64,000 nt of DNA from an uncultured Muribaculaceae bacterium (GTDB lineage Bacteria > Pseudomonadota > Alphaproteobacteria > Rs-D84), in contig OZ246409.1 in assembly GCA_965231035.1 (NCBI GenBank), positions 257,222 to 321,221 on the forward strand, in the 5' to 3' direction. Below the pieces are notes generated by a model. That model saw only the letters and a program-made list of their open reading frames with translations. It was not told where the DNA came from and ran no database searches. The position numbers and the translations under genes are program-made. This document shows, in pieces, positions 3,200 through 56,349 of the stretch. Within the stretch, counting starts at the first letter, position 1. Every line of letters starts with the position of its first letter.

Positions 3200-3210
3200 A
3201 TATTTTTTCT

Positions 3211-3253
3211 TCTTGCCCACATTTTCATAATTTTGCTAACATTATTCTCAGGA
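3211..3253 (+). promoter_or_regulatory. Conserved 5' block shared with the paralog at 26070-26112. Putative promoter TTGCCC-N18-TAACAT lying just before the ATG
   Basis: cttgcccacattttcataattttgctaacattattctcaggaATG versus cttgccctgattttcatatttttgctaatattttacagagaATG; about 80 percent identical over 45 nt. Confidence 0.35.
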
Positions 3254-6900: not shown

Positions 6901-6987
6901 TTATTAAAAACACTAAAAAATTAAATCTGATGCTTGCATCAGATTTTTTTGTTGCTTAAAATAACAAAACTTCTTAAAATTCAAATT

Positions 6988-16400: not shown

Positions 16401-16568
16401 TTTATTTCCTTTGGTTTAGTCAGCCGATGTTAATATAACACCAGCAGGAACACCCTTATTCTAGACAAATATTTGATAAAATCAAGCAAATAATCCCTAT
16501 TGACTTATCGATTGTATTTTTACTATCATTTACAAAAGGCAGAGAGACTTAAAAAACGAGAGATTTTA

Positions 16569-25629: not shown

Positions 25630-25774
25630 CAGACACCACCCTACATAGTCGTTGTATGTAATTTTATCAAATGCTGGCTTCCCACGCAAGCAGATAAACG
25701 TATAAAAATACCTTGCTTTTTCAATTCATAGCTAATATCATCAAACTAGTATTTTGTTTACAAAAAGGTTATTT

Positions 25775-28890: not shown

Positions 28891-29622
28891 ATGAAAAAAT
28901 TATTTTATGCACCTTTATTTTCGCTAATTTTTTCTGCACACGCGGGTGCTTTATCTGCCCCAAGTGCAACCCCTTGGTGGCTGCAACCAACTATTTGTAA
29001 ACCTAATACTACAAATTGTTATTCAAATATGGGCGCCGGGTATGATTCTGGTATGTGGGATGCAACAAGCAATTGCTGGGGATTGAAAAAAATTTGTGCC
29101 GAAGCTACAACTTCTACATCAGATGAAGATTATGTCGAAATGGGACGTGTTACAATTGCAAATGGTACAGGTATAAATTCTGACTTTGATACTACTGTTT
29201 TAAATGGTGATTGTTTTGGTGCAAGAAAAACAACTGCCAGCGGAACACTTGCTTCGGTTAGTGGAAGTTATGTTAATGTTTGGTGTAATGGGATTTTGGA
29301 CAACCCAGGGGATACCGTTTCAAATGGTGAAATTCAAATTGGAACCCAACCAACATGCAAAGATTTGGCGGCAAATGGTTGGGTTGCTGTTTTGAATCAA
29401 CGCTGTTATGGGAAATATTATGATCCTGAAAAATACTATATTGAGTGTGAAGGAACAAATCTGTTACCAAAAAGGATTATTGTTCTGAATGGATCACAAA
29501 AGTTTACTGGAACTGGTTCTGCACCAAGTGCAAATTATCCTGTTGATGCAAATGCGGCGGATACTTTATTTGATAAAATGTTTAATGTTTCAAATAATAA
29601 AAAATCAGACCATTTTAAGTAA
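28891..29622 (+). CDS. Hypothetical secreted protein that contains cysteines
   Basis: Signal peptide MKKLFYAPLFSLIFSAHAGA; paired cysteines throughout; no recognised domain. Confidence 0.45.
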   Translation: MKKLFYAPLFSLIFSAHAGALSAPSATPWWLQPTICKPNTTNCYSNMGAGYDSGMWDATSNCWGLKKICAEATTSTSDEDYVEMGRVTIANGTGINSDFDTTVLNGDCFGARKTTASGTLASVSGSYVNVWCNGILDNPGDTVSNGEIQIGTQPTCKDLAANGWVAVLNQRCYGKYYDPEKYYIECEGTNLLPKRIIVLNGSQKFTGTGSAPSANYPVDANAADTLFDKMFNVSNNKKSDHFK

Positions 29623-41373: not shown

Positions 41374-41408
41374 AAAATCTCGACAATGCCGAGATTTTTT
41401 ATTTTTTT
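41374..41408. terminator. Bidirectional intrinsic terminator
   Basis: aaaaaATCTCGacaatgcCGAGATtttttatttttt. Confidence 0.5.
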
Positions 41409-44400
41409 ATATTCCCAACTTATGTGTCAGTTTTAACATAAATATGGATTCATTTCCAAATTCACTGATATTGTTTGGATTGATGCGATAAATCATCCCC
41501 AGCGCACCATCTGTAAATGCCCCCAGCTTTACACGATAGCTTCCTGTGAATCTTAATTCTCGCTTTTCTGGTGACAGACCCAAATCAGAAATATGGGTAT
41601 CCCTTACAACCAGATCATATGTTCCATCTGAATTTTCAACAACATCATAATCTGCATAAGCATATTTCATATCACCCGAAGTAATTGCCAAAGGCATTGC
41701 GGCCGAGAATGAAAAATTATTTACATCTGCCCCAACTGAGAATGAATTTGATTTAATATCCGACAATCCCAATATGAAATCACCATTTGGATTTGCACGT
41801 GTTTGTGCAAAAGTCGAACGAACTGAAAAATCAATATCCTTGGTCGGGCTGTATCTTGCAACAGTATCAACATATGTTGTATCACCCTGACCCAGTCCTA
41901 ACAATCCGCCCGTTTGTGCACCCAATACTGTATTTGTTTCATGTGCAGTTCCGATTGCTGATGTAATTGCAAACTTTCCATTACCCCATGTAACGTTTGT
42001 TTCACCACCCTGGATTAATCCCAGGTTTGCTGGCTGGTACTGACTGGTAACAGTTGGGTCATTTTGCAAAATAGATTCATCTGTAATATTTCCCGAAAAC
42101 GTACGTGCACCAAAAGACCAATTTCCTGATTTGTACTCGGCACCAGTTGAAACTATATTCGAAGCCAAAGATAAAACAGGATTCGCAGTACCGTCAAATC
42201 TGGAAACACCATCAGTAAAGTGACGCTGATAACCGGCGCTGAAATTAAAGTTACCGACACCATATCCAAATTGTAAATTATCCAAACCACCCATATTATC
42301 AACATAAGCTTTTTCGGATACAGCCATTTGGAATGTTACATTACCCGATTTGAATTGTTTTGGATTTTCTTTGGTTGTTTGGAAACTTCCCAATACATCA
42401 CCCATATAAAGCCCACGAACATCAGATGTACCCAGCGCAAATTCATTTTCCCAAACACGTGGCAATGACAACGTTCCATCAGAACTTGTCAGAACATCAT
42501 AAAATGGTGCACTTATTGATGCGGCACGTGGATTAAACACTGCAGATGATCTGAACAAAGTATTTGTTGCCGCACGCCAATAACCATTTCCACTTGTTGA
42601 TACTATTGAATCCCCATCATAGTAATAAACATTAGCTGTTGGTTTTGTTGCACGTTCAATATTAACCAATCCGTAACCAAACACTTCTTTGAAAACTTTC
42701 AAATAGTCTTCGCCACCTGAGTCAACACGATACTGGTATTCTGTTGGCAATTGATACATAGCCTGCAAATAAGTTTTCAATGCCGAAACTGTCATAGCAG
42801 TCCCGGTTGTAGTTGTTGCCAAATAAGGACCATCAGCAGTCAAAGCCAACAAAGCAAACAATTGTTTGTTATTCAAATAATCAAATGCGGATTTCACAGC
42901 ACCAACCGCCCCAGCCATACTGGATACAGCCAATTCGTCTGTCAATCCTGCCGCAGAAAAACACCATGGATCAATTCCATTTGCACCACTGCCCGCAATC
43001 CCACAAGCGCGTGATTTATAGTTTTTATCATCTAATGGATCAATTGTTCCCTGGGTATCGGTCCAAGTTGATAACGCAATCTTGCCAGAAGGAACATAAC
43101 CAGAAACGCTTGTTTGACCATTTGTGCCGGTACCATTCAATCCAACTGCAACAACCGACATAAATAAATGTTCCAAATTACTGAAAACCAATGGTGCAGA
43201 ATTTTCAAATGTCGCCGTTAATGTTTGTCCTGAATATGAGCTGTCTGTTTCTGCTGCACCAGTCGAGAATATTACCAATGGTGCCCAATCGCGAAGCCCG
43301 TAGTTGTAAAAGAAATCAAAAAAGAGGCTAGCATCTGCACTTGGTAATACTGAGGTTCCATCATTCTCATAATACAAATCAACATAATCAAAAAACTTAT
43401 CCTTATAGTTAGTCGGGGTAGGAGTAACAGATAAAATATCACCAACTGTTTTTGCATCACGATCATGCAGTGGTGAAATCACAGAAGCATTTGCAATAAT
43501 ATCCACTTTTGAACGACCTGTGCTTTCTTCTGGGTCAACTAATCCCGTTAAACCAATGGCATTCAACAATGCCTTGTAATTCTTATAATCTATATTTCCC
43601 AGTTCTTTTGTCAAAGCCAAATCATTATCAGATTCAATCGTATAGGCCTTATCAACAGTACCATCGTCATCGCTGTCAATGTATAATAAACCATCCAGAC
43701 CCTTGTATCCTTTATAAGTATGTGTTCCGTCAGTTGCAGTAAATCCCAACCCAGATGAATCTTTTGCCACTGTCAAAGTATAAGAAAACAGTGTCAAAGT
43801 ATCACTGGATGACCAGCCACTGGTGCTGTTATCAGTATACACACCAGAAACTGTGCCTGCTGCGGCTTTCATACCTTTGCCACCACCAGTTCTGAAAATT
43901 GTCATCTGGCCATTTGGCATAAATCCAATATAGTCAGCAGATGAATAACCAGAATCCTTACCACCGACAACCTTGGCTAATAAATCGTCTATATCTCTTG
44001 AAAAAGAATTATTTATAACCGTTCCATATCCAGCCAAGTCGAACGAATTTAGTGCTGCTGAACTTGAATCTTCTTCGGTCGAATCGTCCAATATTGAATC
44101 AGACTCTGACCCACGATTTATTTTATTATTATAATATTTGCTGGACATCATATTATTACTTGCAGATATCACGGCATTATTATTTGTTTTGCTCCATAAT
44201 AATAATCTATCTTCAAGTGAAGTATCTTGTTTCGCATTTATACCATTCTTTGTTATTATCGCAACATTTGTTGGGCGACCACCCATAACAGAACCACCAG
44301 TCAAAGAACGACCTGAAAAACTTAGCGGTGCTTTTGATTCTGTGTTTCGCAATGTTCGCATACCCATATAACCACGTGCCAGCGCAGAATATCCATGCAT

Positions 44401-45144
44401 CATCAATAAATAATTTTGTTTATACACATGATTTGTCGTATCCGTACTGGTACCGGTCATCAATGCGAAATTATCTTTTAAAATACCTGCGGTTGATGGG
44501 CTGTAATAATTCAAATTGTTTGTGTAATTCGCGGTTTCCGATGTCGCATTAGGCATAGCGGGACTGTAAGGTAATTGAAAAGACGCAGTTCCACCACCAG
44601 GCGTAACATTTGTACAATCACATGTGCCATCTGCTTTACATATTCCAACACTGGTAATTGAACAACGACATTGTTCACCCGAAACACATTTTGTATTATC
44701 TGTGCTGGTGGTATTACTATTTCCAGCAGATACAACATCCGTTAACATAAACAGTCCGCCAACAACAACGGCGGCCCCTGCCGCCGCCAACGCTATGCTT
44801 TGGGCAGAAGACAGCCCGCTGAACAATCCACCAGATTCTTCTTTTGGTAATTTGTTTTTATATTTTTTAATCTGATAATCACACTTCGAAGCGTCTGCAC
44901 CGTACATTTGTAAAATCTGTGCGGCACGAATATCATTATTCATCAATGCTGTGCAAACAACCGACAAGCCAGTATTATCAACATAGTTTATATCCGCACC
45001 ATTATTAACCAGTGCTTGAACCTGCTGAACATCACCATTCTTTGCTGCGGCCAGCAACTGAGCTGCAACCTTGAAATTATCCACTGCAAAAGCGGAAAAT
45101 GGAACAAAAATCAAAGAAAACAACAATAATCTTATGTACTTCAT
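41407..45144 (-). CDS. Giant secreted/outer-membrane-associated protein with N-terminal ankyrin repeats and a C-terminal region of about 1000 aa that is beta-rich and rich in G, S, T, N and Y
   Basis: Signal peptide MKYIRLLLFSLIFVPFSAFA. Ankyrin repeats AAKNGDVQQVQALVNNGADINYVDNTGLSVVCTALMNNDIRAAQILQMYGADAS. A hydrophobic Gly/Ala segment is followed by a long passenger-like region and a C-terminal beta-strand-like pattern resembling an autotransporter. Confidence 0.55.
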   Translation of the reverse strand: MKYIRLLLFSLIFVPFSAFAVDNFKVAAQLLAAAKNGDVQQVQALVNNGADINYVDNTGLSVVCTALMNNDIRAAQILQMYGADASKCDYQIKKYKNKLPKEESGGLFSGLSSAQSIALAAAGAAVVVGGLFMLTDVVSAGNSNTTSTDNTKCVSGEQCRCSITSVGICKADGTCDCTNVTPGGGTASFQLPYSPAMPNATSETANYTNNLNYYSPSTAGILKDNFALMTGTSTDTTNHVYKQNYLLMMHGYSALARGYMGMRTLRNTESKAPLSFSGRSLTGGSVMGGRPTNVAIITKNGINAKQDTSLEDRLLLWSKTNNNAVISASNNMMSSKYYNNKINRGSESDSILDDSTEEDSSSAALNSFDLAGYGTVINNSFSRDIDDLLAKVVGGKDSGYSSADYIGFMPNGQMTIFRTGGGKGMKAAAGTVSGVYTDNSTSGWSSSDTLTLFSYTLTVAKDSSGLGFTATDGTHTYKGYKGLDGLLYIDSDDDGTVDKAYTIESDNDLALTKELGNIDYKNYKALLNAIGLTGLVDPEESTGRSKVDIIANASVISPLHDRDAKTVGDILSVTPTPTNYKDKFFDYVDLYYENDGTSVLPSADASLFFDFFYNYGLRDWAPLVIFSTGAAETDSSYSGQTLTATFENSAPLVFSNLEHLFMSVVAVGLNGTGTNGQTSVSGYVPSGKIALSTWTDTQGTIDPLDDKNYKSRACGIAGSGANGIDPWCFSAAGLTDELAVSSMAGAVGAVKSAFDYLNNKQLFALLALTADGPYLATTTTGTAMTVSALKTYLQAMYQLPTEYQYRVDSGGEDYLKVFKEVFGYGLVNIERATKPTANVYYYDGDSIVSTSGNGYWRAATNTLFRSSAVFNPRAASISAPFYDVLTSSDGTLSLPRVWENEFALGTSDVRGLYMGDVLGSFQTTKENPKQFKSGNVTFQMAVSEKAYVDNMGGLDNLQFGYGVGNFNFSAGYQRHFTDGVSRFDGTANPVLSLASNIVSTGAEYKSGNWSFGARTFSGNITDESILQNDPTVTSQYQPANLGLIQGGETNVTWGNGKFAITSAIGTAHETNTVLGAQTGGLLGLGQGDTTYVDTVARYSPTKDIDFSVRSTFAQTRANPNGDFILGLSDIKSNSFSVGADVNNFSFSAAMPLAITSGDMKYAYADYDVVENSDGTYDLVVRDTHISDLGLSPEKRELRFTGSYRVKLGAFTDGALGMIYRINPNNISEFGNESIFMLKLTHKLGI

Positions 45145-45209
45145 GAAAACTCTCTCTGCTAGAGAAAATTTTAACATAAAAATGTCAAATCTGTCCAGCG
45201 GAAAAAATG

Positions 45210-45482
45210 TTATCTTGTATTAAGTTTTTCAGATTGCAATTTTTTCAATATAATATCATCTGTGGTTTTATCCATATCAAAACCATCAAGCTTTTTTTCA
45301 AACTCTTGTTTTCCAAAATTTTTAATTTTATTTTTATCTTCCAACGACTTGTTAAGCAAATCTATTTTTGTTTTACTTAAATTTTCATCCAAGGCTTGCT
45401 TGACATTTAACAAAACAGATAATGCAAACAGAACCACAAAAGAATATTTACCAAAAGTTTTCAATTTCTTTTTATTATACAT
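45210..45482 (-). CDS. Small hypothetical exported protein
   Basis: 90 aa; hydrophobic N-terminus, K/E-rich. Confidence 0.3.
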   Translation of the reverse strand: MYNKKKLKTFGKYSFVVLFALSVLLNVKQALDENLSKTKIDLLNKSLEDKNKIKNFGKQEFEKKLDGFDMDKTTDDIILKKLQSEKLNTR

Positions 45483-45630: not shown

Positions 45631-46497
45631 ATGAATAAAAGTTTTGCCTTTTTCATATTTGCATTCAGCTTTGTATTTGCTGGTTTTTCTGCCGCAAGTG
45701 CTTCTTCGTGCTCGATTATGGATTTGAACAGATGTTTGGATTCAGCTTGCGGAATTAATATCAGCTTAAACCCCGGGGCACGTTGTCAGCTTTGTGGAAC
45801 TGCTCAGGCTGGTGCCGCTGATACAAAAGGATTCAAAAGTTTATCTGTTGGTGCATCAAACCGAAACACATTATCTGCATCAGATTTACAATCTGCGCCT
45901 TCTGACCCGGGATCCAGATACGCATGGGCCAGTGGCGAATGTTTAAAAAAGATTTCTGGTTGTACCGCAGATGATGTATCAAATAACTATGACAAATTAA
46001 TTGAACAATCTTGTCGTGCTGCGGGTGTTAACGCAGAAATGAATTCTTTGGTATCTGCTGCAAACAAACAAAAAAATGCAAACGTTTGTAATTCAGAAAT
46101 TCTTTTGTGTATGAATTCTGAAAAACATTGTGGCGCAGATTTTTCAAATTGCAAAACAGATGAAGATTTTAATAAACATTTTTCCGTCTGTGCATCAGAT
46201 ACAATTGGATGTGACAATTTTGTAAGTGATATGCGTACAAATATGATTTCACAGCGTGATTCTGCGACATTGGCTTATGATAATTCTGTATCCAGTATTG
46301 TTAAATCTTATCAAACAAAACGCGAAAGCGGATTGAAATCTGCAACAGATACTTGCACAAACAACAAGGGACGCGAAAGTTGCATAAAAACCGTTTGCCA
46401 GAATAATATGAAAAACAAGTGTGATAGTGATTCTGAAAAATCAATAGCGACATTGTTATGTAAATTTTACGACACAGCTTGCGGAAGGTTAAAATAA
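45631..46497 (+). CDS. Secreted cysteine-rich protein; small relative of the CGxDFxNC family. First gene of a four-gene operon
   Basis: Signal peptide; CSIMDLNRCLDSACG...; CMNSEKHCGADFSNC. Confidence 0.55.
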   Translation: MNKSFAFFIFAFSFVFAGFSAASASSCSIMDLNRCLDSACGINISLNPGARCQLCGTAQAGAADTKGFKSLSVGASNRNTLSASDLQSAPSDPGSRYAWASGECLKKISGCTADDVSNNYDKLIEQSCRAAGVNAEMNSLVSAANKQKNANVCNSEILLCMNSEKHCGADFSNCKTDEDFNKHFSVCASDTIGCDNFVSDMRTNMISQRDSATLAYDNSVSSIVKSYQTKRESGLKSATDTCTNNKGRESCIKTVCQNNMKNKCDSDSEKSIATLLCKFYDTACGRLK

Positions 46498-46500
46498 CAA

Positions 46501-48063
46501 ATGAAATTATACGGTTCAATTTTTACGACTTGTTTTTTGGCTACTGCCTTGGTGTTATCATATAACCCAGCAAACGCCGCGGTTGTTCAACGTGGATCTG
46601 TAACGGCGCGCGCTGCACCACGTGCAAATAATGCTATGCGTATTGCATCAACAACAACTACCAATGATACTGTTGAAGCAACAGATACAACAGTTGCGGA
46701 ACTCGAAACAACAGATACAGCAATTGCAGATGCAAATGTAATTGAAAACAAATCTTCTAAATTTGATTCTGTGTTGGGGGATGTTGGTTCAAATTCAATG
46801 GACGTTTCTGCAAAGTCACGCACACAAATGATAATGGATCAACGTGCTGCTTTGGATGCATCAGATACGCAATCCACCAGCAAAAAAGTTGTTACGACTG
46901 CGGGCAGCACTTGCGATACAAATTTGCGTAATTGTATGAAGCAAAAATGCAATAATGATTTTTCAAAATGTTCTGGGGACGGCGATACTGATTGGGGAAA
47001 CAAAATAAATTCTTGCCGTGCCACTTCAAATTGTTCCAGTGAAGAATTTAATTTATTCGCAGATGAAATCAAGGCAGACCGAGACTATAATTCAGAAATG
47101 GCAAATTATAATCAAACCATTGATTGCGGGAACAGATATAACAGCTGTATAATTTCGCAATGTGGTACAGATTTTTCAAAATGCCTTTCTAAATCTGTTG
47201 CAGATGCTGCGGTGTTGAATTGCACAAAAATCGCAACCGATTGTCAAAGTGCTGATAACGGTTTAACATCCAGGGCTCAAGAAGTTTTCGGTACACTTCG
47301 TAACAACGCCGTAACCCAGACAAAGAAAGATGAAGATCGCCTATATGAACTGCGCAATTTAATGACAGAACAGTGTAAAAGTTTCGGTGCTTCGTTTGAC
47401 GAACGCAGTTTGGATTGCGTATTCACAGTAAATCTGTTCGCAAATAATTCTAAAACACCAATGGCATCAAAAAAATTGTACGCCGGTGATACATTTGATT
47501 GTAACCAGGATTGGTTTGGTATTGATTTAACAACTTATAAAGAAAATGCTTATCGTTTAACACGTTCCCAGACGGCTGCATCATCCGCTATGTTGGGTGC
47601 AGGATTGGGTGTTGCCGCCGGTGCGATTTCATCGGGTGCAATCAGCCACGCAATTGATACACACAAGGCAGAAAAAGCATTAGACGCCGCAAAAGAAAAC
47701 TCGAATTCCTCAAGTAACAACGAATCAGGTTTATCATCAGTTGATGGAAGCAGCATGAATAAAACAAACACAGAAACTGAAACCTCTTCAAAAATTGATG
47801 TTGAAACAAACCGGGATCAGGTTTTAAAAGATAATGCTAAGATAACAGGAAATAACGCCGAAGCTATGGAAAATATGGATAAATCAAGACAAGATTATGA
47901 AACCGCCAAGAAAAACAATGATATGATTGGTATGGCAAATGCTGAAGCTAATATGCACGCAGAAGGAAGTAAAGTAAAAGAAATGGAACATATAGAGGTA
48001 TCTTCTACACCATCTGCACCAGAAAAAATAGATGCTTCAAAATTATTAGGTGGATCGAAATAA
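46501..48063 (+). CDS. Secreted cysteine-rich protein with a Gly-zipper hydrophobic segment; family relative
   Basis: CDTNLRNCMKQKCNNDFSKCSGDGD; CIISQCGTDFSKC; SAMLGAGLGVAAGAISSGAI. A 4-nt gap separates it from the upstream gene. Confidence 0.55.
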   Translation: MKLYGSIFTTCFLATALVLSYNPANAAVVQRGSVTARAAPRANNAMRIASTTTTNDTVEATDTTVAELETTDTAIADANVIENKSSKFDSVLGDVGSNSMDVSAKSRTQMIMDQRAALDASDTQSTSKKVVTTAGSTCDTNLRNCMKQKCNNDFSKCSGDGDTDWGNKINSCRATSNCSSEEFNLFADEIKADRDYNSEMANYNQTIDCGNRYNSCIISQCGTDFSKCLSKSVADAAVLNCTKIATDCQSADNGLTSRAQEVFGTLRNNAVTQTKKDEDRLYELRNLMTEQCKSFGASFDERSLDCVFTVNLFANNSKTPMASKKLYAGDTFDCNQDWFGIDLTTYKENAYRLTRSQTAASSAMLGAGLGVAAGAISSGAISHAIDTHKAEKALDAAKENSNSSSNNESGLSSVDGSSMNKTNTETETSSKIDVETNRDQVLKDNAKITGNNAEAMENMDKSRQDYETAKKNNDMIGMANAEANMHAEGSKVKEMEHIEVSSTPSAPEKIDASKLLGGSK

Positions 48064-48066
48064 AAA

Positions 48067-48663
48067 ATGAAAAAAGTATTAACAAGTATCTTTTCTATTC
48101 TTATATTAACGCCTGCAATCTCTACTGGTTTGTCAGACTACAAAAATTGTAAACTTAACATAGACTCAGAATATTCCAGAAAAGAACTTTCTTTAGAATC
48201 TCAACAGAAACTTGACACATGGATGAAAACGCCCCTAACAGAAGATAGAAAAGGTACATTTAATAGTATTTCATATTCTTGCCCAGCTGGGACACTTCCT
48301 AGCGACTGCTCCGGACAAGGAAAAGATATTTTAAAATCTCTATATGAAAAATATTTAAAACAAATGGAAATTGATGCTGCTGTGAAAGAAAAATGTACAA
48401 ACGACACTTCTATTCAGACAGATGTTAAAAAAACAGAAGTTGTGGAAAATTTAAAGAATACTGTTAAAGAGACCAATACTGAAAAAAATAGTAACTCAAA
48501 AGAAAGCTTCGGCAGCGGTATTAAGAATATGTTCAAATCCGACAAGAAAAAACTAGCAGAGGCAACTCAACAAGCAACAGATTCAGAAAAACAAGCATTA
48601 GAAGAATTTAACACATCTGTTCAAATTGCAAAATCTGAATTTGAAAGAAAACTTGGAATTTAA
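48067..48663 (+). CDS. Hypothetical exported protein
   Basis: Signal peptide MKKVLTSIFSILILTPAIST; K/E-rich. Confidence 0.4.
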   Translation: MKKVLTSIFSILILTPAISTGLSDYKNCKLNIDSEYSRKELSLESQQKLDTWMKTPLTEDRKGTFNSISYSCPAGTLPSDCSGQGKDILKSLYEKYLKQMEIDAAVKEKCTNDTSIQTDVKKTEVVENLKNTVKETNTEKNSNSKESFGSGIKNMFKSDKKKLAEATQQATDSEKQALEEFNTSVQIAKSEFERKLGI

Positions 48664-48675
48664 AGCGGCAATAAT

Positions 48676-50043
48676 ATGAAGAAACTACTTTTTGTATTTT
48701 TATTTTTACTTCCTGTTACTGCTTTTGCAGATGCTTTTGACGACGCTGTGGCAAAATATGAGTCTGATGTCAAAAATGCAACAAATATATTGAATAGTAA
48801 AATCACACAAAATACAAATCTTGTACAACTGTCCACAGATCAAGTAAACGATGATATGAAATCAACTGTCAGAACAGCTAAAAAGAAATTTAACAAACAG
48901 TTAAGTTCCCAAGAAAAAGAAGATGAACAAAAATATCAAGAAAAACAACAAGAAGTAAGTGAACAAACAGATGTTTCAAATTCCGCAAATTCATCAAATG
49001 TTACAAATCCTGATAAAATTGCCGAGCTTGAAGCCAATGCCAAGGCAATGAAAGATAAAGAAAACTCAACTGCAAATAAAATGCTGGGGGCGGCAGCCGT
49101 TGGCGCAACCGGAATTGGCGGCAGCCAATTGTTGCAAGGTCTGTCCGAAAAAAAATCAGACGATGCAGCCGAACGTGATATGAAAGCTTATCTGGCAACA
49201 TTTAAATGTGACTATGGTCAGGGACAAAATGTTAACGGTGGCGATAAATCAATCACCCTGCCCGGCGGAAATGTTTTAACATCTTATTACACAGAATATA
49301 AAACTCTGGCAGCTAATCTTAAAACTACGAAAACTGCTTTGGGATTAACACCTGGAATTGAATCTGAAACATTATTGGATAAATCAACCGCAGGGCTTTA
49401 TGACAATGAATCAACTGGCAAAAAATCTGGTGCTTTTGCCAGCGTATCTGATGCCTTGTCTGGGAATGCAGATGCTAAAGACGCTTGGAATGCCCAAAAA
49501 TCCGAAGCATCTAAAAAGGTCACAACTGGTATTGTTGCCGCCGGCGTTGGTATTGTTGGTGGCGCAGTTGGAAATATGTTGATAAATAAAGATTCCACCA
49601 AGGAAAGTTCAGATGTAAATTCTGATGATAAAAAAACAAATGATACAAGTTCTTCTGTGACTTCTTCTGATAAAAGCAATGAACAAAAAATATCTTCTGT
49701 TACAAATGATAATGTTTCTTTGGATAACACAGATAAAAAAACTAATACTTTTGAAGATTTAGACAAAAAATATAAAGACGCAGCAATCAAATTCAAAGAA
49801 GCAGACGAATTATATAATAAATTAGCTAATGAAAGTATGAAAAACGGTGGTGTTGTTACTGAAGAATTAGAAGATGCAAGAATTGCGCGCGACCAAGCAG
49901 AGAAAGACCTTGAAACTGCAAAAAGTGAAACTGTTACAGCCAATTCATCTATGAAAGAAATTCAAACTGGAAATAATACCTCTGATGATATCTCGAAACT
50001 ATCTAATAATTCTTCTACTTTGTCATTGCGAGGAATGAAATGA
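48676..50043 (+). CDS. Hypothetical exported protein with Gly-zipper segments; the last 9 codons and the stop are supplied by a repeat element
   Basis: Signal peptide; MLGAAAVGATGIGG and GIVAAGVGIVGGAVGNML. The C-terminus STLSLRGMK* is encoded by ttgtcattgcgaggaatgaaatga. Confidence 0.5.
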   Translation: MKKLLFVFLFLLPVTAFADAFDDAVAKYESDVKNATNILNSKITQNTNLVQLSTDQVNDDMKSTVRTAKKKFNKQLSSQEKEDEQKYQEKQQEVSEQTDVSNSANSSNVTNPDKIAELEANAKAMKDKENSTANKMLGAAAVGATGIGGSQLLQGLSEKKSDDAAERDMKAYLATFKCDYGQGQNVNGGDKSITLPGGNVLTSYYTEYKTLAANLKTTKTALGLTPGIESETLLDKSTAGLYDNESTGKKSGAFASVSDALSGNADAKDAWNAQKSEASKKVTTGIVAAGVGIVGGAVGNMLINKDSTKESSDVNSDDKKTNDTSSSVTSSDKSNEQKISSVTNDNVSLDNTDKKTNTFEDLDKKYKDAAIKFKEADELYNKLANESMKNGGVVTEELEDARIARDQAEKDLETAKSETVTANSSMKEIQTGNNTSDDISKLSNNSSTLSLRGMK

Positions 50044-50202
50044 TGTATTAACTGGATTGCCACGCTTCGCTCGCAATGACAAATTGTTGGGGTTAGTTAT
50101 AGTTCCAGTTTGTCATTGCGAGGAATAAAATGACGAAGCAATCCAGGTTGATAAAAGAAAAACATATTGACTGGATTGCCGTGCTTCGCTCGCAATGACA
50201 AA
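50019..50202. repeat. Cluster A of RPE-like hairpin repeats: two elements built from inverted units TTGTCATTGCGAGG...GACGAAGCAATCCAG and CTGGATTGCCrCGCTTCGCTCGCAATGACAA
   Basis: Units at about 50019-50033 plus 50052-50083, and 50109-50147 plus 50171-50202. Confidence 0.75.
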
Positions 50203-50208
50203 TCTAAA

Positions 50209-50237
50209 TTAAAAACCGCCCATTTGGGCGGTTTTTA
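50209..50237. terminator. Intrinsic terminator
   Basis: aaaaaCCGCCCAtttGGGCGGttttt. Confidence 0.45.
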
Positions 50238-50251
50238 ACTTTTATACCTTA

Positions 50252-52300
50252 TTATTGGCATGCGCCATAAGATACTGCAACTGGATGATTATCTACGCAA
50301 GTGCTGCCAGAAACAACACATGCTGTATTTACCAATTGTGTATTGGTTGAATTAACCGGTTTATAATTCAGCTGTGCTGCTGCGCACTGGTTCAAATCTT
50401 TCAGTGTTGCACAAGCATTCTTCCACGAAGTACAATCTGTCGCAGTTGCTGTTGGCATAATTGTATCTGGCAAACGCAGGTTCCATTTGACATAGAAGTC
50501 TTTTAACGAACCAATGCTATAAGATTTACCAAAGTCAACCTTTTGCAATCCGTCACCAACACGACAGTTAATGTTGTTCTTTTCAACAAAAGATGTGATT
50601 GCTGTTGCCAATCCACCTGCGGCGGCACCAGCACCGGCACCAATTGCAGTTGACGCCAACATGTTTGAATCCTCACCCTGCAATATTGTCAACTGATTCA
50701 TAACATTTCCCAGTTCTTTTACTTGTTTTCCAAATTCTTCACTATCAACGCAATTATTGTTATTCCCCGAACAATATGGTTTTATACCATTCTTTTTTGC
50801 AAGATTCAAGTTACTGAATGTCATGGCACATTTATCTGTCGATGTTATAACAGTATTATCATTAGAAAGTTTTTTTACCGTTATTTTAATACTTCTGGTT
50901 CCATCATCAGTCAGGTATTTTACCTTATCTTCTGTCAAACTATTATTCATTACTTCACGATCTTTATTATCCTTTGAAACTTTGTCAAGCATTGCTTTAC
51001 TAGTAGTTCCATCGAAAAGTATATCTTTTGCTGTTACATCTATATCTTCGGTATTAGTAATATTTATTGCTGAATTTGTTGTACCAGTTGTGCATGATTT
51101 CAATGCAACTTTTGCTGCTTGGTAATCACTGTAAAGTGTAACTATGGCTTCGCACTGATCGCCAATATATTCATTTACAATAATCTGGCTTTCAGAATCC
51201 AAGAATTGATTTAAAACAGCGACCTTGCCAGTTGCACGCAATTCCTTATCCAATTCTTTTACCTGATCTTTGTCTTTGCAGTTAAAGTTACGTTGACCAT
51301 GGCCGGCCAATGCACCGATACCTGCACCAACCAATGTACCACCACCAACACCAACGACTGATGTGGTCTTGGTCTTGGTCATCAAACCAAACCCAAACAT
51401 ATCTTTACCACAGTTAAAGCTGCTGCCTGCTGATTTCCAAACTTCGGCCGGTTGATCATTTCCAGCGGCACCAAATAACCAACTGTTTTTGATTTGTGAA
51501 TCTTTGTTGTACGCTGCAACACGAACCAAACATTCACCCTTGACCGCATCCCATCTGGCATAATGTCCACGTTGTGCATCAACAGTACCATTATTATTAA
51601 CCCTTACACCCTGAGGCATATCTTTGGTCAAAGATCCACCAGACTGACTGTTATAAGCACCAACAGTTTGGTTATATTCTTCTGTGACTTTTCCACCATT
51701 CGAAATCGCTGCAAAAGATGAACCATAAGTATTTTTATCCAACAACCAACATGTATTTTCTGCTTGGTTTGGTGTTAATCCTGTTTTGCGCAGAACAAAA
51801 GAATAATATTCAGGTTGAATCTTGCGAGAGTTATAGTCCCACCAAAAATCAGAAGAAGTAGCATAAACATTTTTGCAATTCTTACGAACGTCGCTGATAC
51901 ATTTATCCACCTGGGCATAACACAGACTCATTCCATTAAAGATAGAATTACGCAAATCTTCGTTGAACAAATCGTTTAACCCACCAGGAAGTGCACCGTT
52001 GTTAATACAAGAAGTAACATCGTTGATGCAATTTTCAACTGTATATTCAGAATTTGCAACACCACCATCTGGACACTTGGAAACTGTTGTTCCTGTATTC
52101 GTTGTAGTATTACCAGTCGCATTGCCAGGAAGAATTGACATTGTTGGCATACGTTGCTGACCTGCTGTATAGGCTGCCCCACGAACCGGTGCAACATTAT
52201 AACCCGCACGCCCTGTATCCGCTGCACCTGCAGAACCTAGAACAAAAACTGTACTTGCAGACACAATGGAAAACCCGAATTTCTTTAATAAATTGTGCAT
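50252..52300 (-). CDS. Large exported protein with Cys pairs and two Gly/Ala-zipper segments
   Basis: Signal peptide MHNLLKKFGFSIVSASTVFVLGSAGA; VGVGGGTLVGAGIGALAGHG; AIGAGAGAAAGGLATAITS. Confidence 0.45.
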   Translation of the reverse strand: MHNLLKKFGFSIVSASTVFVLGSAGAADTGRAGYNVAPVRGAAYTAGQQRMPTMSILPGNATGNTTTNTGTTVSKCPDGGVANSEYTVENCINDVTSCINNGALPGGLNDLFNEDLRNSIFNGMSLCYAQVDKCISDVRKNCKNVYATSSDFWWDYNSRKIQPEYYSFVLRKTGLTPNQAENTCWLLDKNTYGSSFAAISNGGKVTEEYNQTVGAYNSQSGGSLTKDMPQGVRVNNNGTVDAQRGHYARWDAVKGECLVRVAAYNKDSQIKNSWLFGAAGNDQPAEVWKSAGSSFNCGKDMFGFGLMTKTKTTSVVGVGGGTLVGAGIGALAGHGQRNFNCKDKDQVKELDKELRATGKVAVLNQFLDSESQIIVNEYIGDQCEAIVTLYSDYQAAKVALKSCTTGTTNSAINITNTEDIDVTAKDILFDGTTSKAMLDKVSKDNKDREVMNNSLTEDKVKYLTDDGTRSIKITVKKLSNDNTVITSTDKCAMTFSNLNLAKKNGIKPYCSGNNNNCVDSEEFGKQVKELGNVMNQLTILQGEDSNMLASTAIGAGAGAAAGGLATAITSFVEKNNINCRVGDGLQKVDFGKSYSIGSLKDFYVKWNLRLPDTIMPTATATDCTSWKNACATLKDLNQCAAAQLNYKPVNSTNTQLVNTACVVSGSTCVDNHPVAVSYGACQ

Positions 52301-52421: not shown

Positions 52422-52450
52422 TTGACAAATAAACAAAATTCGTCTATTAT
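52422..52450 (+). promoter_or_regulatory. Sigma-70-type promoter TTGACA-N17-TATTAT with the ATG only about 7 nt downstream; possibly leaderless
   Basis: The start of the track ORF coincides with the TTGACA box. Confidence 0.35.
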
Positions 52451-52457
52451 TAAATTG

Positions 52458-53384
52458 ATGAAAAAGCTGTCTGAGTTTTTAAAGACAAATGTGCTGGCAG
52501 TAAAGTGGACCTTTTGGTATTTTGCTGCGTTTTATGCTGTCCTGTCCTTTTTATTTGGATTTAATATATTTTCTGCAAATGATTGGATTATGATTACTCA
52601 TTCCAGATTGCGCGGACTACCTGGTTTTACTTTTGGAATTATTATGTTTTCAGCAATTCCTTTGTACATTGCGACTACTGCAACAATTATAAAAACGAAA
52701 AAACCTTTATTTAATTTCTTTACTGCAAAAAAAGAAGAACCTAAAAAAATAGCCGAAGAAAAAAAAGAAGTTTTCAAAGAAATTATTATTCAATTTCCAG
52801 AAAGAATGCCGACTGAATTACGTGGTGCGTTTATTCGTGCAAGACAACAAGCTGGTGTCAGACCAGAATCTGCCTTTGATATGAAAGACATAAAATCACA
52901 ACCAAAAGTGGCAATCGAAGAAAAAAAAGAAGAAACACCAGAATTTGGTTTACCATTGCCTGATAATTTTGATTTTACATCTGAAAACGAATCGCCTGCC
53001 GAATTACAGTTCAGTTCAACACCTGTGTTCAAAGAAATTAATTTTGGAGATTTTAATACAAAGAAAGATAGCAAATCACCATTGATTGAACATCTTGAAA
53101 GCAAAGGATATGAAATTGCTTTTGATGGTAATGTTGTAATCGCAAATAATTTTGCAATTGCGGTTCACGACGATTCGGATTTTTGGATTGCTGATAAAGA
53201 CAATTGGTTTGCAGCAGGCAAACAAAAAGAATCCCCCATATCCGAAGTTTTAATGGTATCTGAAAAACACGGTGTAAATGCGATGATTTATTTGGCGGAA
53301 AAAAATATTATGGATTTGGACAAACGAATTGCAGAATGGGAATTCAAAGGAGTCAAGGTTATTAAAAACCTGACTGAAATTTAA
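52458..53384 (+). CDS. Hypothetical membrane protein (3 N-terminal TM helices plus a cytoplasmic or periplasmic domain)
   Basis: MKKLSEFLKTNVLAVKWTFWYFAAFYAVLSFLFGF...; K/E-rich linker; C-terminal globular part. Confidence 0.4.
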   Translation: MKKLSEFLKTNVLAVKWTFWYFAAFYAVLSFLFGFNIFSANDWIMITHSRLRGLPGFTFGIIMFSAIPLYIATTATIIKTKKPLFNFFTAKKEEPKKIAEEKKEVFKEIIIQFPERMPTELRGAFIRARQQAGVRPESAFDMKDIKSQPKVAIEEKKEETPEFGLPLPDNFDFTSENESPAELQFSSTPVFKEINFGDFNTKKDSKSPLIEHLESKGYEIAFDGNVVIANNFAIAVHDDSDFWIADKDNWFAAGKQKESPISEVLMVSEKHGVNAMIYLAEKNIMDLDKRIAEWEFKGVKVIKNLTEI

Positions 53385-53398
53385 TTAGCTAATAAAAC

Positions 53399-53538
53399 TT
53401 GTCATTGCGAGGAGTGCAACGACGAAGCAATCCAGTGGATAAAAATGCAAAAGCATACTTACTGGATTGCCACGCTTCACTCGCAATGACAATCTGGTCT
53501 TATTTACTGGATTGCCGCGCTTCGCTCGCAATGACAAA
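53399..53538. repeat. Cluster B of RPE-like hairpin repeats (one full element plus one solo unit)
   Basis: 53399-53436 and 53462-53492 form a hairpin; a solo unit lies at 53507-53538. The units are the same as in cluster A. Confidence 0.75.
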
Positions 53539-53542
53539 GAAA

Positions 53543-53571
53543 TAAAAAATCCGCCAAGGCGGATTTTTTAT
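53543..53571. terminator. Bidirectional intrinsic terminator
   Basis: aaaaaATCCGCCaaGGCGGATtttttt. Confidence 0.5.
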
Positions 53572-56349
53572 TTACATCTGTACACCATTTGTAACTGTTG
53601 TTGGATCTTTGAATTTAGTACAAAAAACACCTTCAAATTTTTTCGTCACTCTTTTTCTTCCACCACCTATATGCAATATACCACCTCCACCTTTGCATCC
53701 ACCACCACCAAAAAAACTTAACCCACCATAACTACAAGTATTAGATTTTGAATAAACATCTTTAAATGTATCACACATAGTCGTAACTGTAGTTATATTG
53801 CAAGTATTAGATGAAGATGAATATACAGAAGTTAAAGAAACCTTTCCAATCATATTACCCTTAGTATCCGTTTGAGTCCATTCAGAATGACCACTGGATG
53901 CTACAGAAATTATATCCGACATCTTTGCACCACTTATAATATATTTCATTGAGTAAATATCATTACCAGACACACCTTTACTTGATGTATCATCAAACAA
54001 ATCAGCATAAGATGTAGCTTCATATGCTGTGCAATTCCCGTCAGAATCATAAGTTTTACAAGATTTAGGTTCTGATGCCATAGCTGCACACATTGCTGTT
54101 TTTAAATCATCATTTTGATTTTCTAATGCTTCTGATACCATTTTATCATACTTTTTATTATAGTTTTTATTTGCTTTTTCCAAGCCAGAATTCATTATAG
54201 CCAATATAGAAGAATCTAATAAATTTGGATATCTTGCCGTAGATGTTGTTGATACTGCATTTGTTCCATCACCACGAATTTGTGTCATATCACGACCCTC
54301 AATACACATCTTTATTTTTGCATCCTGAGACAAGACAGCTATCTTTTGATTCATCTTATTTGCCGTGGATTGTAAAGATGAAACAACGCGTGAGGTCAAA
54401 GAATCTGAAGATAATAAATGATTTTTGTAATCATTTATATCAATCTCGTACTTACCAAATTTTACATCTGTATCACTACTTTTTGTCCTTTCAATTTTCA
54501 CATTTCCATAAGAAACTAATCCTTCAATTACATAATCTCCATTATTATCCTTGTAACTGGATAAACTTTCTGTACCAATAGAATCATCATCATCGAATGC
54601 TGTGCAATTATCAGTATCACCACATATTTCTATCATTTTTTCAGACACAATTTTTTGACATTTATCCAGCAGCGAATTATCTATATTAAGGTAAATTCCT
54701 TGTACTATATTATCTATATCATTAATATTATTTAAAACGCCATCTTTTTGACATCCTACCAGTTTATCAATTGGACATAGTTTCTTTATATCACTCAAAT
54801 CTAAACCTATACAATTATGAAAATCTTCGCCGCAAGTATTTTCATTAGTGAAACATTCTTTAACTTCGGTTGTACAAGAATCAACACGCATTGCTGATAA
54901 TTTTGCATAGACATAATCCAGAATCAAAGGTTCTGCTGAAACACAAGGATCGATTTGCACTTTGCATAAAGAACGAACTGTTTCTGGACGTGATAAACAC
55001 ATATCATATGAACCATCCGGATCATTTGGATCAATTGTATCTTTACATGCTTTTTGGAAACATGAGGATATATTAGAAATACAATTTGTCCGTAAATTAG
55101 ATTCAGCCAATAGTTCAGCTGTTTTTAAAGTTGGTGCAACATCACGCAAAAATGAATTCCAAACCTGGTCTTTTACTGCAACACAAGAATTTGTTATATT
55201 TTCACACATTGGTTTTTTTGATTCCAGCGCATCCATAGTGGATGCAGCAACTGAAATTTTTGTATTTGATCCGGTTATATCAACCATCTTCATAGAAGAC
55301 TTAGAACTGCTGGACATCTTGGCATTTTCAGCCGCAGCAATTCCAACACAGCCTGTAAAATCACTTTTGCAACCTGCTGTATCAGTCATGCATTTTTCAA
55401 AAGCCAAAGTACACTGACCTAGGTCATATTTATTTGCTGTACGTAATGAATCCAAAGCGGCATCACGCAGAGCCTTTTGTGCAGTTGCTAATTTCTGTGT
55501 GCTGGAATTTTTTTGCTTAGTTAAATCATTTTCATACGCCGCACAATCAGATTTTATATTCTGAGAATAACCAAGTTGTATCATTGCCAAATCTTCTGAA
55601 CATTCTGGAATTTGTGCTGAACACAATTCAGCAACAGAACTATACAAGTCATTACCTGTTTTACCTTCAACAGGGCTTACCTCTCTTTGTGCAAATATAT
55701 CTTGATCCATTGTATCAGAATCCGTCTGATTCCACTGACTTAAATCCAACGTTTTTTTCTGGGTTACATTACTAGTTGTTAAACTATTTGCTGTATTGTT
55801 TGCAGATGCGATTACTTTATCTGCATCAGAACCCATTTCAATTTTTTCAACACCCTCGGTTGCCATTTTATAACTTTGAGCATCCAAAGCCTGAATCTGA
55901 ACCTGAACCTTATCCAGCTCAGCCTTGCGATCACTGCATAAACAACGACCGCCACTGGTGTTTTCAATCATACAAAAAGAATCCATACATCCATAATATT
56001 TTTGCTTACAAGCTTCATCCACTATTATATTCTTGTTCACACCAGAAATTGCAGTACCTGAATTTATAACTTTTTGCATAGTCCCAGCACGTGCAGAAAC
56101 AACTGGCGCGGACATTGGAGTTGCCGCAGATCTGGCAGATATTGTTCGAACGTTTGAAGATGTTGCACTGGGCATTACAGCTGAACGTGCAGAAGTTGGT
56201 CTGACAGCAGCACGTGCCGACACGGGTGTTTGTGCAGTGCTTTCAGATGGTTGTGATACAGATTGACCACGCCTTTGCACAGGAACTTCAGCATTTGCAC
56301 ACACAACAAAGGTTGCCATAAAAATAGAAAAAATTGCAATTTTTCTCAT
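53572..56349 (-). CDS. Large secreted cysteine-rich protein, family member 5 (close paralog of 20963-23464)
   Basis: Signal peptide MRKIAIFSIFMATFVVCANA; SARSAVMPSATSSNVRTISARSAATP; CKQKYYGCMDSFCMIENTSGGRCLCSDR; CGEDFHNCIGLDLSDIKKLCPIDKLVGC; Gly-rich C-terminus. Confidence 0.7.
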   Translation of the reverse strand: MRKIAIFSIFMATFVVCANAEVPVQRRGQSVSQPSESTAQTPVSARAAVRPTSARSAVMPSATSSNVRTISARSAATPMSAPVVSARAGTMQKVINSGTAISGVNKNIIVDEACKQKYYGCMDSFCMIENTSGGRCLCSDRKAELDKVQVQIQALDAQSYKMATEGVEKIEMGSDADKVIASANNTANSLTTSNVTQKKTLDLSQWNQTDSDTMDQDIFAQREVSPVEGKTGNDLYSSVAELCSAQIPECSEDLAMIQLGYSQNIKSDCAAYENDLTKQKNSSTQKLATAQKALRDAALDSLRTANKYDLGQCTLAFEKCMTDTAGCKSDFTGCVGIAAAENAKMSSSSKSSMKMVDITGSNTKISVAASTMDALESKKPMCENITNSCVAVKDQVWNSFLRDVAPTLKTAELLAESNLRTNCISNISSCFQKACKDTIDPNDPDGSYDMCLSRPETVRSLCKVQIDPCVSAEPLILDYVYAKLSAMRVDSCTTEVKECFTNENTCGEDFHNCIGLDLSDIKKLCPIDKLVGCQKDGVLNNINDIDNIVQGIYLNIDNSLLDKCQKIVSEKMIEICGDTDNCTAFDDDDSIGTESLSSYKDNNGDYVIEGLVSYGNVKIERTKSSDTDVKFGKYEIDINDYKNHLLSSDSLTSRVVSSLQSTANKMNQKIAVLSQDAKIKMCIEGRDMTQIRGDGTNAVSTTSTARYPNLLDSSILAIMNSGLEKANKNYNKKYDKMVSEALENQNDDLKTAMCAAMASEPKSCKTYDSDGNCTAYEATSYADLFDDTSSKGVSGNDIYSMKYIISGAKMSDIISVASSGHSEWTQTDTKGNMIGKVSLTSVYSSSSNTCNITTVTTMCDTFKDVYSKSNTCSYGGLSFFGGGGCKGGGGILHIGGGRKRVTKKFEGVFCTKFKDPTTVTNGVQM

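Follow-up and report, generated by a model that had tools for sequence, protein, structure and literature searches.

A conserved operon of exported cysteine-rich and glycine-zipper proteins as a candidate envelope assembly in Rs-D84 Alphaproteobacteria

The two-transmembrane (2TM) glycine-zipper lipoproteins of the Escherichia coli outer membrane – SlyB, YfgH, OsmB and YiaD, the last combining a zipper with an OmpA_C domain (bioRxiv 10.64898/2025.12.22.696046) – offer, by analogy, the closest precedent for a locus that we describe here from an alphaproteobacterium of the order Rs-D84. The locus lies in a 64,000-nucleotide stretch of contig OZ246409.1 (positions 257,222–321,221 of the forward strand; assembly GCA_965231035.1), hereafter the window. 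It comprises four genes on the forward strand, named g1 to g4 in operon order, and a convergent neighbor, g5; large Cys-rich paralogs encoded in the same window are designated A, C, D, E and G. Our reading, held with modest confidence and drawn from sequence comparison, is that the locus encodes a lineage-specific envelope assembly, stabilized by disulfides, tethered to peptidoglycan and probably situated at the outer membrane.

As in SlyB and YiaD, the proteins of the locus are exported and contain hydrophobic helices with GxxxG/AxxxG patterns and conserved glycines, and in g4 and g5 these helices are paired; as in YiaD, the g4 family has two zippers and a C-terminal OmpA domain (PF00691). 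On this analogy the conserved glycines suggest helix–helix oligomerization. Unlike the E. coli proteins, however, those of the cluster have neither lipobox nor lipid anchor and fall short of the Pfam Gly-zipper models; their helices lie 130–210 amino acids (aa) apart (the g4 loop has 130 residues) and do not form a tight hairpin; and they are large, multi-domain proteins with Cys-rich modules, the g4 of the window having apparently lost its OmpA domain. Comparison with the OmpA family itself gives a similarly mixed picture: the domain is bona fide in 29 of 31 g4 orthologs, whereas the window g4 is without it and the N-terminal two thirds of g4 match no known OmpA-family architecture.

Two further comparisons concern the cysteines. 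The chlamydial Cys-rich outer-membrane complex, in which OmcA/OmcB occur with MOMP or Pom porins, resembles the present case in that a partner- or host-dependent bacterium with a reduced genome exports several Cys-rich proteins to its envelope, where disulfides are presumed to bond them. The comparison, which is one of analogy and not of homology, is invited by the lifestyle of the lineage and by the presence of a Pom-type porin homolog. None of the 18 proteins scanned against Pfam and NCBIfam matched a chlamydial Cys-rich family; moreover, the Cys domains of the window are all-alpha, and cross-linking is here only presumed. The porin homolog, an exported protein of 510 aa ending in SAKF (1497–3029, reverse strand), matches the Pfam family Pom (Protochlamydia outer membrane protein) above cutoff (E = 2.9e-10) and resembles a porin of the chlamydial type, encoded here by an alphaproteobacterium. 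The second comparison is with the twin-CXnC helical hairpins of the mitochondrial intermembrane space (CHCH proteins), to which the cluster proteins are similar in that cysteines on their predicted helices recur at intervals of about seven residues (CX6C), an arrangement compatible with antiparallel helices stapled by disulfides. They differ in that the spacing is CX6C as opposed to CX3C/CX9C and the unit contains six cysteines and is repeated in tandem; no homology to CHCH proteins was detected.

Rs-D84 (Candidatus Enterousia and relatives) comprises gut Alphaproteobacteria with genomes that are mostly smaller than 1 Mb, encoding many hypothetical membrane or membrane-bound proteins that may mediate cell–cell interaction; its members are without pili, flagella and standard transporters, are predicted to be obligate symbionts or parasites, and – the group being widespread in the gut – have been proposed to live off other cells (PMC12306168). 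Rs-D84 bacteria are probably partner-dependent. A search of the literature on Enterousia and Rs-D84 found no paper describing the cluster proteins, which are undescribed so far. Against Pfam and NCBIfam, the cluster proteins and large paralogs returned only ankyrin repeats and sub-threshold Gly-zipper matches; sequence and profile searches of the PDB with g1, g2, g5 and the neighboring ankyrin-repeat protein found ankyrin repeats only, and Foldseek searches of the PDB with the AlphaFold2 (AF2) models of g1 and g5 gave nothing at E<1. Relatives were sampled by scanning a single genome for each GTDB species: 271 species have a g1 relative, and the analysis covered 80 loci together with flanks of 10 kb. 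Named homologs of the target proteins come almost entirely from metagenome-assembled genomes (MAGs) labeled Alphaproteobacteria, Rickettsiales or Candidatus Enterousia; a single g5 match carries the label Lachnospiraceae. Housekeeping neighbors in the window include NrdR, a CcrM-type methylase, PpiD/SurA_N, TPI, GrpE, L17 and RpoA.

The initial annotation had described g1 to g4 as an operon of exported proteins. Its open reading frame (ORF) boundaries are exact, and independent JGI gene calls on an identical contig (3300009694, Ga0116170_10000073) concur. Genes g1 (45631–46497), g2 (46501–48063), g3 (48067–48663) and g4 (48676–50043) are separated by spacers of 3, 3 and 12 nt, and purine runs resembling Shine–Dalgarno sequences precede g2 and g3. 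No terminator-like site was found inside 45631–50043, and a bidirectional intrinsic terminator hairpin with a 13-pair stem (AAAAACCGCCCATTTGGGCGGTTTTT) and T-runs on both sides is located at 50209–50238, between the convergent g4 and g5. The four genes thus have the features of an operon – one strand, short spacers, a terminator at the end and adjacency across species – and from this layout 45631–50043 (g1-g2-(g3)-g4) is predicted to be a single operon. A 90-aa ORF at 45210–45482 (reverse strand), called by JGI, was considered as a part of the system and set aside: tblastn found no match in 80 related loci.

Signal peptides, assigned from N-terminal sequence features, are evident in the operon proteins, as had been proposed, and in g5: in all five a basic n-region is followed by a hydrophobic core and then an AxA-like site. 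Predicted cleavage sites are SAASA/SS in g1, PANA/AV in g2, AISTG/LS in g3, TAFA/DA in g4 and SAGA/AD in g5.

Comparison among species shows which parts of this arrangement are retained. In all 69 loci with enough flanking sequence g2 directly follows g1, and g4 is found in 50 of 52. Among the 36 loci with full flanks, the ankyrin-repeat protein is present in every one, g5 in 22 and its neighbor g6 in 19; in 28, one or more members of the large family are encoded within 10 kb. In about 48 of 59 loci g4 comes straight after g2 (gap −25 to +55 bp, with no intervening ORF of 80 aa or longer), and the core operon is therefore g1-g2-g4, conserved across the order Rs-D84. The operon proposed initially is thus real, but its core has three genes and not four, g3 having in all probability split off from g4. 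In one subclade the g1-g2-g4 unit is inverted as a block; independent re-clustering was considered for the rearranged loci (L021, L043 and L058) and rejected, since a single inversion of g1-g2-g4 explains the order.

A, C, D, E and G are plainly paralogous (BLASTP 1e-10 to 1e-166; hhalign 98.6–100%); G, for example, matches C at 3e-166 and D at 1e-55 by BLASTP, and D at 100% and E at 99.6% by hhalign. G (925 aa; 53572–56349, reverse strand) flanks the cluster; C (20963–23464, reverse strand), D (23488–25689, reverse strand) and E (26113–28851, forward strand) lie elsewhere in the window and directly adjoin the g1 cluster in other species. A occupies 3254–6262 (forward strand), with a likely start at the Met of MKKITLL near 3254: the listed ORF (3152–6262) has its mechanical start inside a tRNA-Leu(GAG) gene at 3115–3199. 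The listed ORF of D, too, is longer than it should be, by some 20 codons. The window also encodes two smaller Cys-rich proteins that are exported, B (6934–7956, forward strand; 20 Cys) and F (28891–29622, forward strand; 9 Cys), with patterns unlike the 6-Cys unit described below; F orthologs travel with D and E beside the cluster in several species (L037, L061, L071, L078 and L083).

g1 is an exported, all-alpha protein of 288 aa with 20 cysteines, as judged from conservation, structure prediction and Cys spacing. All 20 cysteines are invariant among 73 sequences, and the AF2 model (predicted local distance difference test, pLDDT, 82) is entirely helical, with residues 150–288 above pLDDT 90. 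The Cys and Gly/Ala motifs quoted in the initial annotation are all present where it placed them, including the Cys motifs CMNSEKHCGADFSNC (g1, 160–174) and CIISQCGTDFSKC (g2, 216–228). A strict form of the module (C-x5-7-C-x2-7-C-x2-[DN][FYW]-x2-C, 22 residues), defined after the sequences had been seen, occurs eight times in the window – once in g1, twice in g2, twice in C, once in D and twice in G – whereas composition-preserving shuffles average no more than 0.0005 per protein. The possibility that g1 is a lipoprotein was rejected: it has no lipobox, and its first Cys, which follows ASASS, is one of 20, an even number that allows full pairing.

The correspondence extends to the order and spacing of the cysteines. 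In g1 the spacings are 8,5,12,3; 7,17; 7,7,7,13,7; and 9,5,8,13,7, and in D, starting from C109 (residues 109–408), they are 7,5,10,2; 7,19; 7,7,7,13,7; and 7,5,8,11,6. G, C, E and A start in the same way as D, and the resulting large-family fingerprint (7,5,10,2; 7-8,19-21; 7,7,7,x,7; 7,5,8-16,11,6-7) is found in g1. It is absent from g3, g4 and g5; g2 has two units only (7,5,7,15,6 and 7,5,7,13,7). Seventeen of the 20 g1 cysteines are colinear with G and with D, against no more than 10–12 in column-shuffled controls, and the correspondences g1–g2, g2–G and g1–G agree for ten cysteines, that is, they are fully transitive. Profile–profile comparison by hhalign gave 74% for g1 against G and C (P = 2.8e-5), 69% for g1 against g2 (P = 4.5e-5) and 51% over 80 columns for g1 against all large members; P values for g1 range from 3e-5 to 1.5e-4, and real scores of 44–48 compare with at most 25 for reversed or column-shuffled controls. 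By BLASTP the similarity of g1 and g2 to the large family is at best marginal (g1 against C, E = 0.001 in an 18-protein database).

On the basis of the module count, the profile–profile scores and the matching Cys spacing, g1 and g2 appear to share a domain with the large family: g1 would be a stand-alone copy of its 20-Cys N-terminal domain, and g2 would carry two of its 6-Cys units. The suggestion that the g1 and g2 modules are small versions of those in the large family is thereby strengthened beyond what had been proposed. The same suggestion does not extend to g4 and g5, for which we detected no similarity to the large family. The broader idea of one system across the window accordingly holds as regards the conserved neighborhood – g2, g4, the ankyrin-repeat protein and a large member in the proportions given above – and is not supported as regards a relationship of g4 and g5 to the large proteins.

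g2 is an exported protein of 520 aa whose layout, obtained from the conservation profile, Cys counts and hhalign, consists of a signal peptide, a VVQRG...RMPT motif (residues 26–52), the 6-Cys units (138–248), a YAGxTFxCxxxWFGID motif, a zipper (327–386) and a non-conserved tail (400–520). The two tandem 6-Cys units (C138–C178 and C209–C248; 46912–47244, forward strand) are recognized by their spacing and by cysteines that map transitively to g1 153–284 and G 313–469. The pre-zipper motif YAGDTFDCNQDWFGIDL and the Gly/Ala zipper SAMLGAGLGVAAGAISSGAI (47479–47658, forward strand) are conserved and resemble g5 291–326; within the Gly/Ala segment (362–381), which includes LGAGLGVAAGAISSGAI (365–381), G366, G368, G370, G374 and S378 are invariant among 29 sequences. 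An [ST]FxC...FG motif, placed 15–30 residues before the zipper, is common to g2 and g5 (hhalign P = 6e-4). So, too, is RMP[TS] after the signal peptide, which is present in 26 of 46 g2 and 29 of 31 g5 orthologs, in none of the 443 other ORFs of the same loci, and, as RMPT, beyond g2 and g5 in a single D ortholog; the corresponding N-terminal stretch of the large paralogs holds Arg/Ser/Thr-rich repeats of the SARSA kind.

The pre-zipper part of g2 contains exactly 15 cysteines in 43 of 46 orthologs, and the tail contains cysteines in 17 of 46 – between 8 and 20, and even in nearly every case – and otherwise none. In some species the g2 tail is related to the N-terminal arm of g4 (74% identity over 50 aa, E = 1e-21; a second case, E = 2e-12). 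EGF-like Cys modules occur in some g2 tails (L019, L031, L047, L043, L060 and L081), and in L047, L060 and L081 the C-terminus of g2 is rich in Arg and Ser (TRTVSSRGVSSR), similar in this to the Arg/Ser/Thr-rich repeats near the N-termini of the large proteins.

g5 (50252–52300, reverse strand) is an exported protein of 682 aa, described from conservation and an AF2 model (pLDDT 61.6, with confident sub-domains). It begins with a signal peptide and a TGRA...QRMPTM segment, followed by a conserved helical Cys domain (9 Cys), an SFNC..FGFGL motif, zipper 1 (residues 313–337), a hypervariable middle (6 Cys), zipper 2 (545–570) and a conserved C-terminal domain (7 Cys). Zipper 1 (TSVVGVGGGTLVGAGIGALAGHG; 51290–51364, reverse strand), which includes the motif LVGAGIGALAGHG (323–335), has weak, sub-threshold matches to Pfam Gly-zipper_YMGG and Gly-zipper_Omp; zipper 2 (LASTAIGAGAGAAAGGLATAITSF; 50591–50668, reverse strand) was recognized from a zipper scan and ortholog conservation. 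Homologs number 746 at E≤0.01, and among the 120 matches listed identity is about 50% or more, mostly over the full length. Across 91 sequences G317, G319–321, G325, G329, G333, G335, G554, G558 and G562–563 are invariant. Compared with the window protein, orthologs show an identity of 0.72 for the N-domain and 0.75 for zipper 1, and of 0.72 for zipper 2 and 0.70 for the C-domain, yet only 0.18–0.33 for the middle, which varies between 160 and 229 aa in orthologs and keeps six cysteines that do not form a CxxC zinc-binding pattern.

g4 encodes an exported protein of 455 aa with zipper 1 at residues 135–156, a loop with an invariant C178 (ATFKC), zipper 2 at 283–304 and variable arms of coiled-coil or low-complexity sequence. 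The zipper–loop–zipper core (residues 125–305; 49048–49590, forward strand) has 108 database homologs, the named ones being Alphaproteobacteria MAGs only; GIVAAGVGIVGGAVGNML occupies residues 285–302, G146 and G292 are invariant, and G138, G143 and G148 are at least 90% conserved. The length of g4 ranges from 384 to 1866 aa, and the arms contain CarboxypepD_reg, EGF-like, CPL1-like and Big_1 modules: a CarboxypepD_reg-like domain is found in the N-terminal arm of 20 of 31 orthologs, and OmpA (PF00691) lies above the Pfam cutoff at the C-terminal end of 29 of 31 (best E = 8e-19). The same proportion, 29 of 31, has 15–57 cysteines together with the OmpA domain (for example L006, L014 and L060), whereas both arms of the window g4 are without Cys. 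In most orthologs each arm has an even number of cysteines (0–32), and the loop between the zippers has exactly one in 40 of 40. By comparison with these orthologs, the window g4 is best described as a reduced form that has apparently lost the OmpA domain.

g3 (forward strand), an exported protein of 198 aa with 4 Cys, has its homologous counterpart in the first ~180 residues of long g4 orthologs (phmmer E = 1.9e-6 for L014 g4 and 1.5e-5 for L047 g4) and is detectable in the closest relatives only. The g4 core begins near residue 327 in orthologs and near residue 114 in the window; the 198 residues of g3 cover the difference, which fits gene fission, g3 being a probable fragment of the g4 N-terminus. 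A repeat, GCTTCGCTCGCAATGACAA, present in four copies (0 expected), occurs in the intergenic regions flanking g5-g6 (50052–50203 and 53467–53540), and generates a spurious ORF at 53467–53721 (PRFTRND...PRFARND). The copies 3' of g4 sit where orthologs still encode a Cys-rich, OmpA-bearing C-terminal arm; the element may mark the deletion of this arm.

A shared glycine-zipper anchor had also been proposed for these proteins. The Gly-rich segments are not signal-anchor artefacts: they are internal, and among the orthologs of each of g2, g4 and g5 their glycines are either invariant or at least 90% conserved. This conservation points to specific helix packing and not to a generic hydrophobic anchor. 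The zippers of different proteins nevertheless align at the GxxxG pattern only, and so do not represent one homologous anchor. As to the Gly/Ala tails of the large members, D alone has a true hydrophobic zipper, at its C-terminal end (674–712), whereas the Gly-rich C-termini of C and G are without the zipper pattern; a comparable zipper is found in the ankyrin-repeat protein (128–146).

Taken with the signal peptides, the distribution of cysteines bears on topology. The parity of Cys numbers, the modules common to g2 tails and g4 arms, the OmpA domain in nearly all g4 orthologs and the conserved cysteines of g5 argue that the sequence on both sides of the zippers would lie outside the cytoplasm and that in most species the assembly would be tethered to peptidoglycan. 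The surface location proposed initially goes further than these features indicate. Cysteines gained or lost in pairs are what disulfide-bonded regions would show. The window also encodes a membrane-anchored, thioredoxin-fold, DsbA-like oxidoreductase (13365–14189, reverse strand; Pfam DSBA E = 3.5e-20) and an SLT transglycosylase (34344–36065). The DsbA-like gene has been kept even though genomes of the lineage are below 1 Mb and are reported to be without respiratory chains; its presence suits a load of exported Cys-rich proteins.

We therefore envisage – conditionally – an assembly in which all domains would be extracytoplasmic and disulfide-bonded. The zippers would serve as oligomerizing helices, most likely embedded in the outer membrane; rigid helical domains stapled by disulfides (g1, g2 and the large family), together with the OmpA domain, would tie the layer to peptidoglycan; and the g5 middle domain, the tails of g2 and the arms of g4, all hypervariable, would face the environment or a partner cell. 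The unpaired cysteines near the zipper in g2 (15 Cys) and in the g4 loop (1 Cys) may form intermolecular disulfides. That the odd g2 cysteine pairs with the single one of g4 was considered and put aside as speculation, the two possibly being on opposite sides of the zippers.

Several observations weigh against this reading. None of the proteins reaches a Pfam Gly-zipper gathering threshold: g5 reaches 14.4 bits where YMGG (PF13441) requires 28.9, and 12.7 where Gly-zipper_Omp (PF13488) requires 25, the g2 and g4 of the window have no match to these models, and neither do 31 g4 orthologs (E≤0.01) or 29 g2 orthologs (E≤0.1). No lipobox (L-[AS]-[GA]-C) is seen at the end of any signal peptide on reading the sequences, which leaves the route to the outer membrane unexplained; to our knowledge, every characterized outer-membrane glycine-zipper protein has one. 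The window g4 has no OmpA domain, nor any remnant of it in a Pfam scan, and the CarboxypepD_reg domain is likewise absent. A g1 profile does not find the large proteins of the window significantly by hmmsearch, and an exhaustive profile search of 1.84 billion proteins returned 66 matches, all of 427 aa or less, with no large-family member among them; g1 is therefore a narrow, distinct orthologous family. Moreover, g5 adjoins the g1 cluster in 22 of 36 loci only, and synteny is generally stable in reduced genomes, so that adjacency alone is weak evidence for a functional link. Finally, some zippers are hydrophobic enough for inner-membrane stop-transfer (Kyte–Doolittle 1.87 for g4 zipper 2 and 2.22 for the Gly/Ala segment of the ankyrin-repeat protein), and the single-Cys loop – the best conserved part of g4 – would also suit a cytoplasmic loop.

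These last points lead to a serious rival, in which the proteins are periplasmic and anchored in the inner membrane. The Gly/Ala segments would then be stop-transfer helices of the Sec pathway, g2 a type-I protein with a cytoplasmic tail, and g4 and g5 hairpins with cytoplasmic loops and periplasmic arms, g4 being MotB-like in that its OmpA domain would extend from the inner membrane to peptidoglycan. The segments do come after cleavable signal peptides, several have Kyte–Doolittle values of 1.6–2.2 over 19 residues, and the lone, well-conserved Cys of the g4 loop is readily accommodated. A transmembrane helix with a periplasmic OmpA_C domain is, besides, a common inner-membrane architecture, MotB and PomB being examples. 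Yet g4 zipper 1 and g5 zipper 2 are weakly hydrophobic (1.3 or less), and the regions that would be cytoplasmic have features that speak against it: the g2 tails that contain cysteines do so in largely even numbers and in some species hold modules of disulfide type found right after the g4 signal peptide, while the g5 middle has its six conserved cysteines without a zinc-binding pattern and a degree of variability atypical of a cytoplasmic domain between regions that are 70–75% identical. Given the cysteines on both sides of the zippers, the modules common to g2 tails and g4 arms and the OmpA domain of most g4 orthologs, it is improbable that the zippers act as ordinary anchors in the inner membrane with tails in the cytoplasm, and we consider this topology as a whole unlikely, if deserving of attention.

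An alternative that overlaps with the envelope assembly we favor but puts interaction before envelope structure, and to which we attach a somewhat lower probability than to inner-membrane anchoring, is that the locus encodes a repertoire of secreted or surface adhesins and antigens for attachment to a partner or host, with the large paralogs and variable arms binding ligand and the conserved parts acting as a scaffold for export and anchoring. It would accord with a lineage predicted to consist of obligate symbionts or parasites without pili or flagella (PMC12306168), with at least five large paralogs in one 64-kb window, with the length range of g4 and the module content of its arms, with the hypervariability of the g5 middle and g2 tails, and with an ankyrin-repeat protein next to the operon. 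Set against this, identity across the order is roughly 50–70% for g1, for the core of g2 and for both terminal domains of g5, all of them fixed in length – a pattern of a structural core under purifying selection and not of antigenic or ligand variation – while the OmpA domain points to the periplasm and no adhesin family was matched.

Least probable, and in our view improbable, is that there is no system at all and that unrelated conserved exported proteins have been kept adjacent by low rearrangement, CX6C and GxxxG being convergent low-complexity motifs: it draws on the failure of HMM-to-sequence (hidden Markov model) searches to join g1 to the large family, on the dissimilarity of g4 and g5 to that family, on zippers that align at GxxxG only and on a g5-g6-G block adjacent in only ~60% of species, but runs counter to the nearly identical 20-Cys spacing of g1 and D, the transitive Cys mapping of g1, g2 and G, profile–profile scores far above reversed and shuffled controls, tight operon spacing, the near-confinement of RMPT to g2 and g5, the exchange of modules between g2 tails and g4 arms, and the inversion of g1-g2-g4 as a block.

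The favored envelope assembly also has a more daring form, which we put forward tentatively and think doubtful: an undescribed envelope layer in which alpha-helical glycine-zipper hairpins free of a lipid anchor would cross the outer membrane or be embedded in it and would present the hypervariable domains, conserved 6-Cys rods stapled by disulfides and the OmpA domain would couple the layer to peptidoglycan, and the RMPT-type motif would be a dedicated sorting or attachment signal.

Two neighbors of the cluster complete its description. g6 (52422–53384, forward strand), found in 19 of the 36 loci as noted, is a membrane protein of ~308–320 aa that is divergently paired with g5 in many species and has no Pfam or NCBIfam match. 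The ankyrin-repeat protein (41407–45177, reverse strand), divergent from the g1 operon, is exported and 1256 aa long, with a signal peptide, ankyrin repeats at residues 36–100 (Pfam Ank_4, E = 2.9e-6), a hydrophobic Gly/Ala segment at 128–146 and some 1100 residues more. It is the most conserved member of the neighborhood (64% mean column identity), and the segment that follows the repeats, LAAAGAAVVVGGLF, is nearly invariant; for the other ~1100 residues, neither Pfam nor NCBIfam gave a family and the PDB gave no solved structure. Elsewhere in the window, a 286-aa membrane protein without Pfam match (16500–17360, forward strand) adjoins a protein of 405 aa (17387–18604, forward strand) that combines a single hydrophobic segment at the N-terminus with an OmpA domain (E = 6e-15). 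Together the two are reminiscent of MotA/MotB; the lineage is reported to be without flagella.

The locus gives the "hypothetical membrane-bound proteins" of Rs-D84 (PMC12306168) a concrete anatomy: an operon, a Cys unit, zippers, an OmpA tether and hypervariable regions. These features yield predictions on topology, disulfide partners, oligomerization and the RMPT motif, and point to the parts most likely to be exposed at the surface and to face a partner. The models of g1 and g5 have no neighbors among solved structures, which makes their families candidates for new folds. If the more daring reading, that of an undescribed envelope layer, is true, these integral outer-membrane proteins of alpha-helical type would form a class not seen before, and a new fold family would take up about 3% (an estimate from summed gene lengths) of a genome smaller than 1 Mb.

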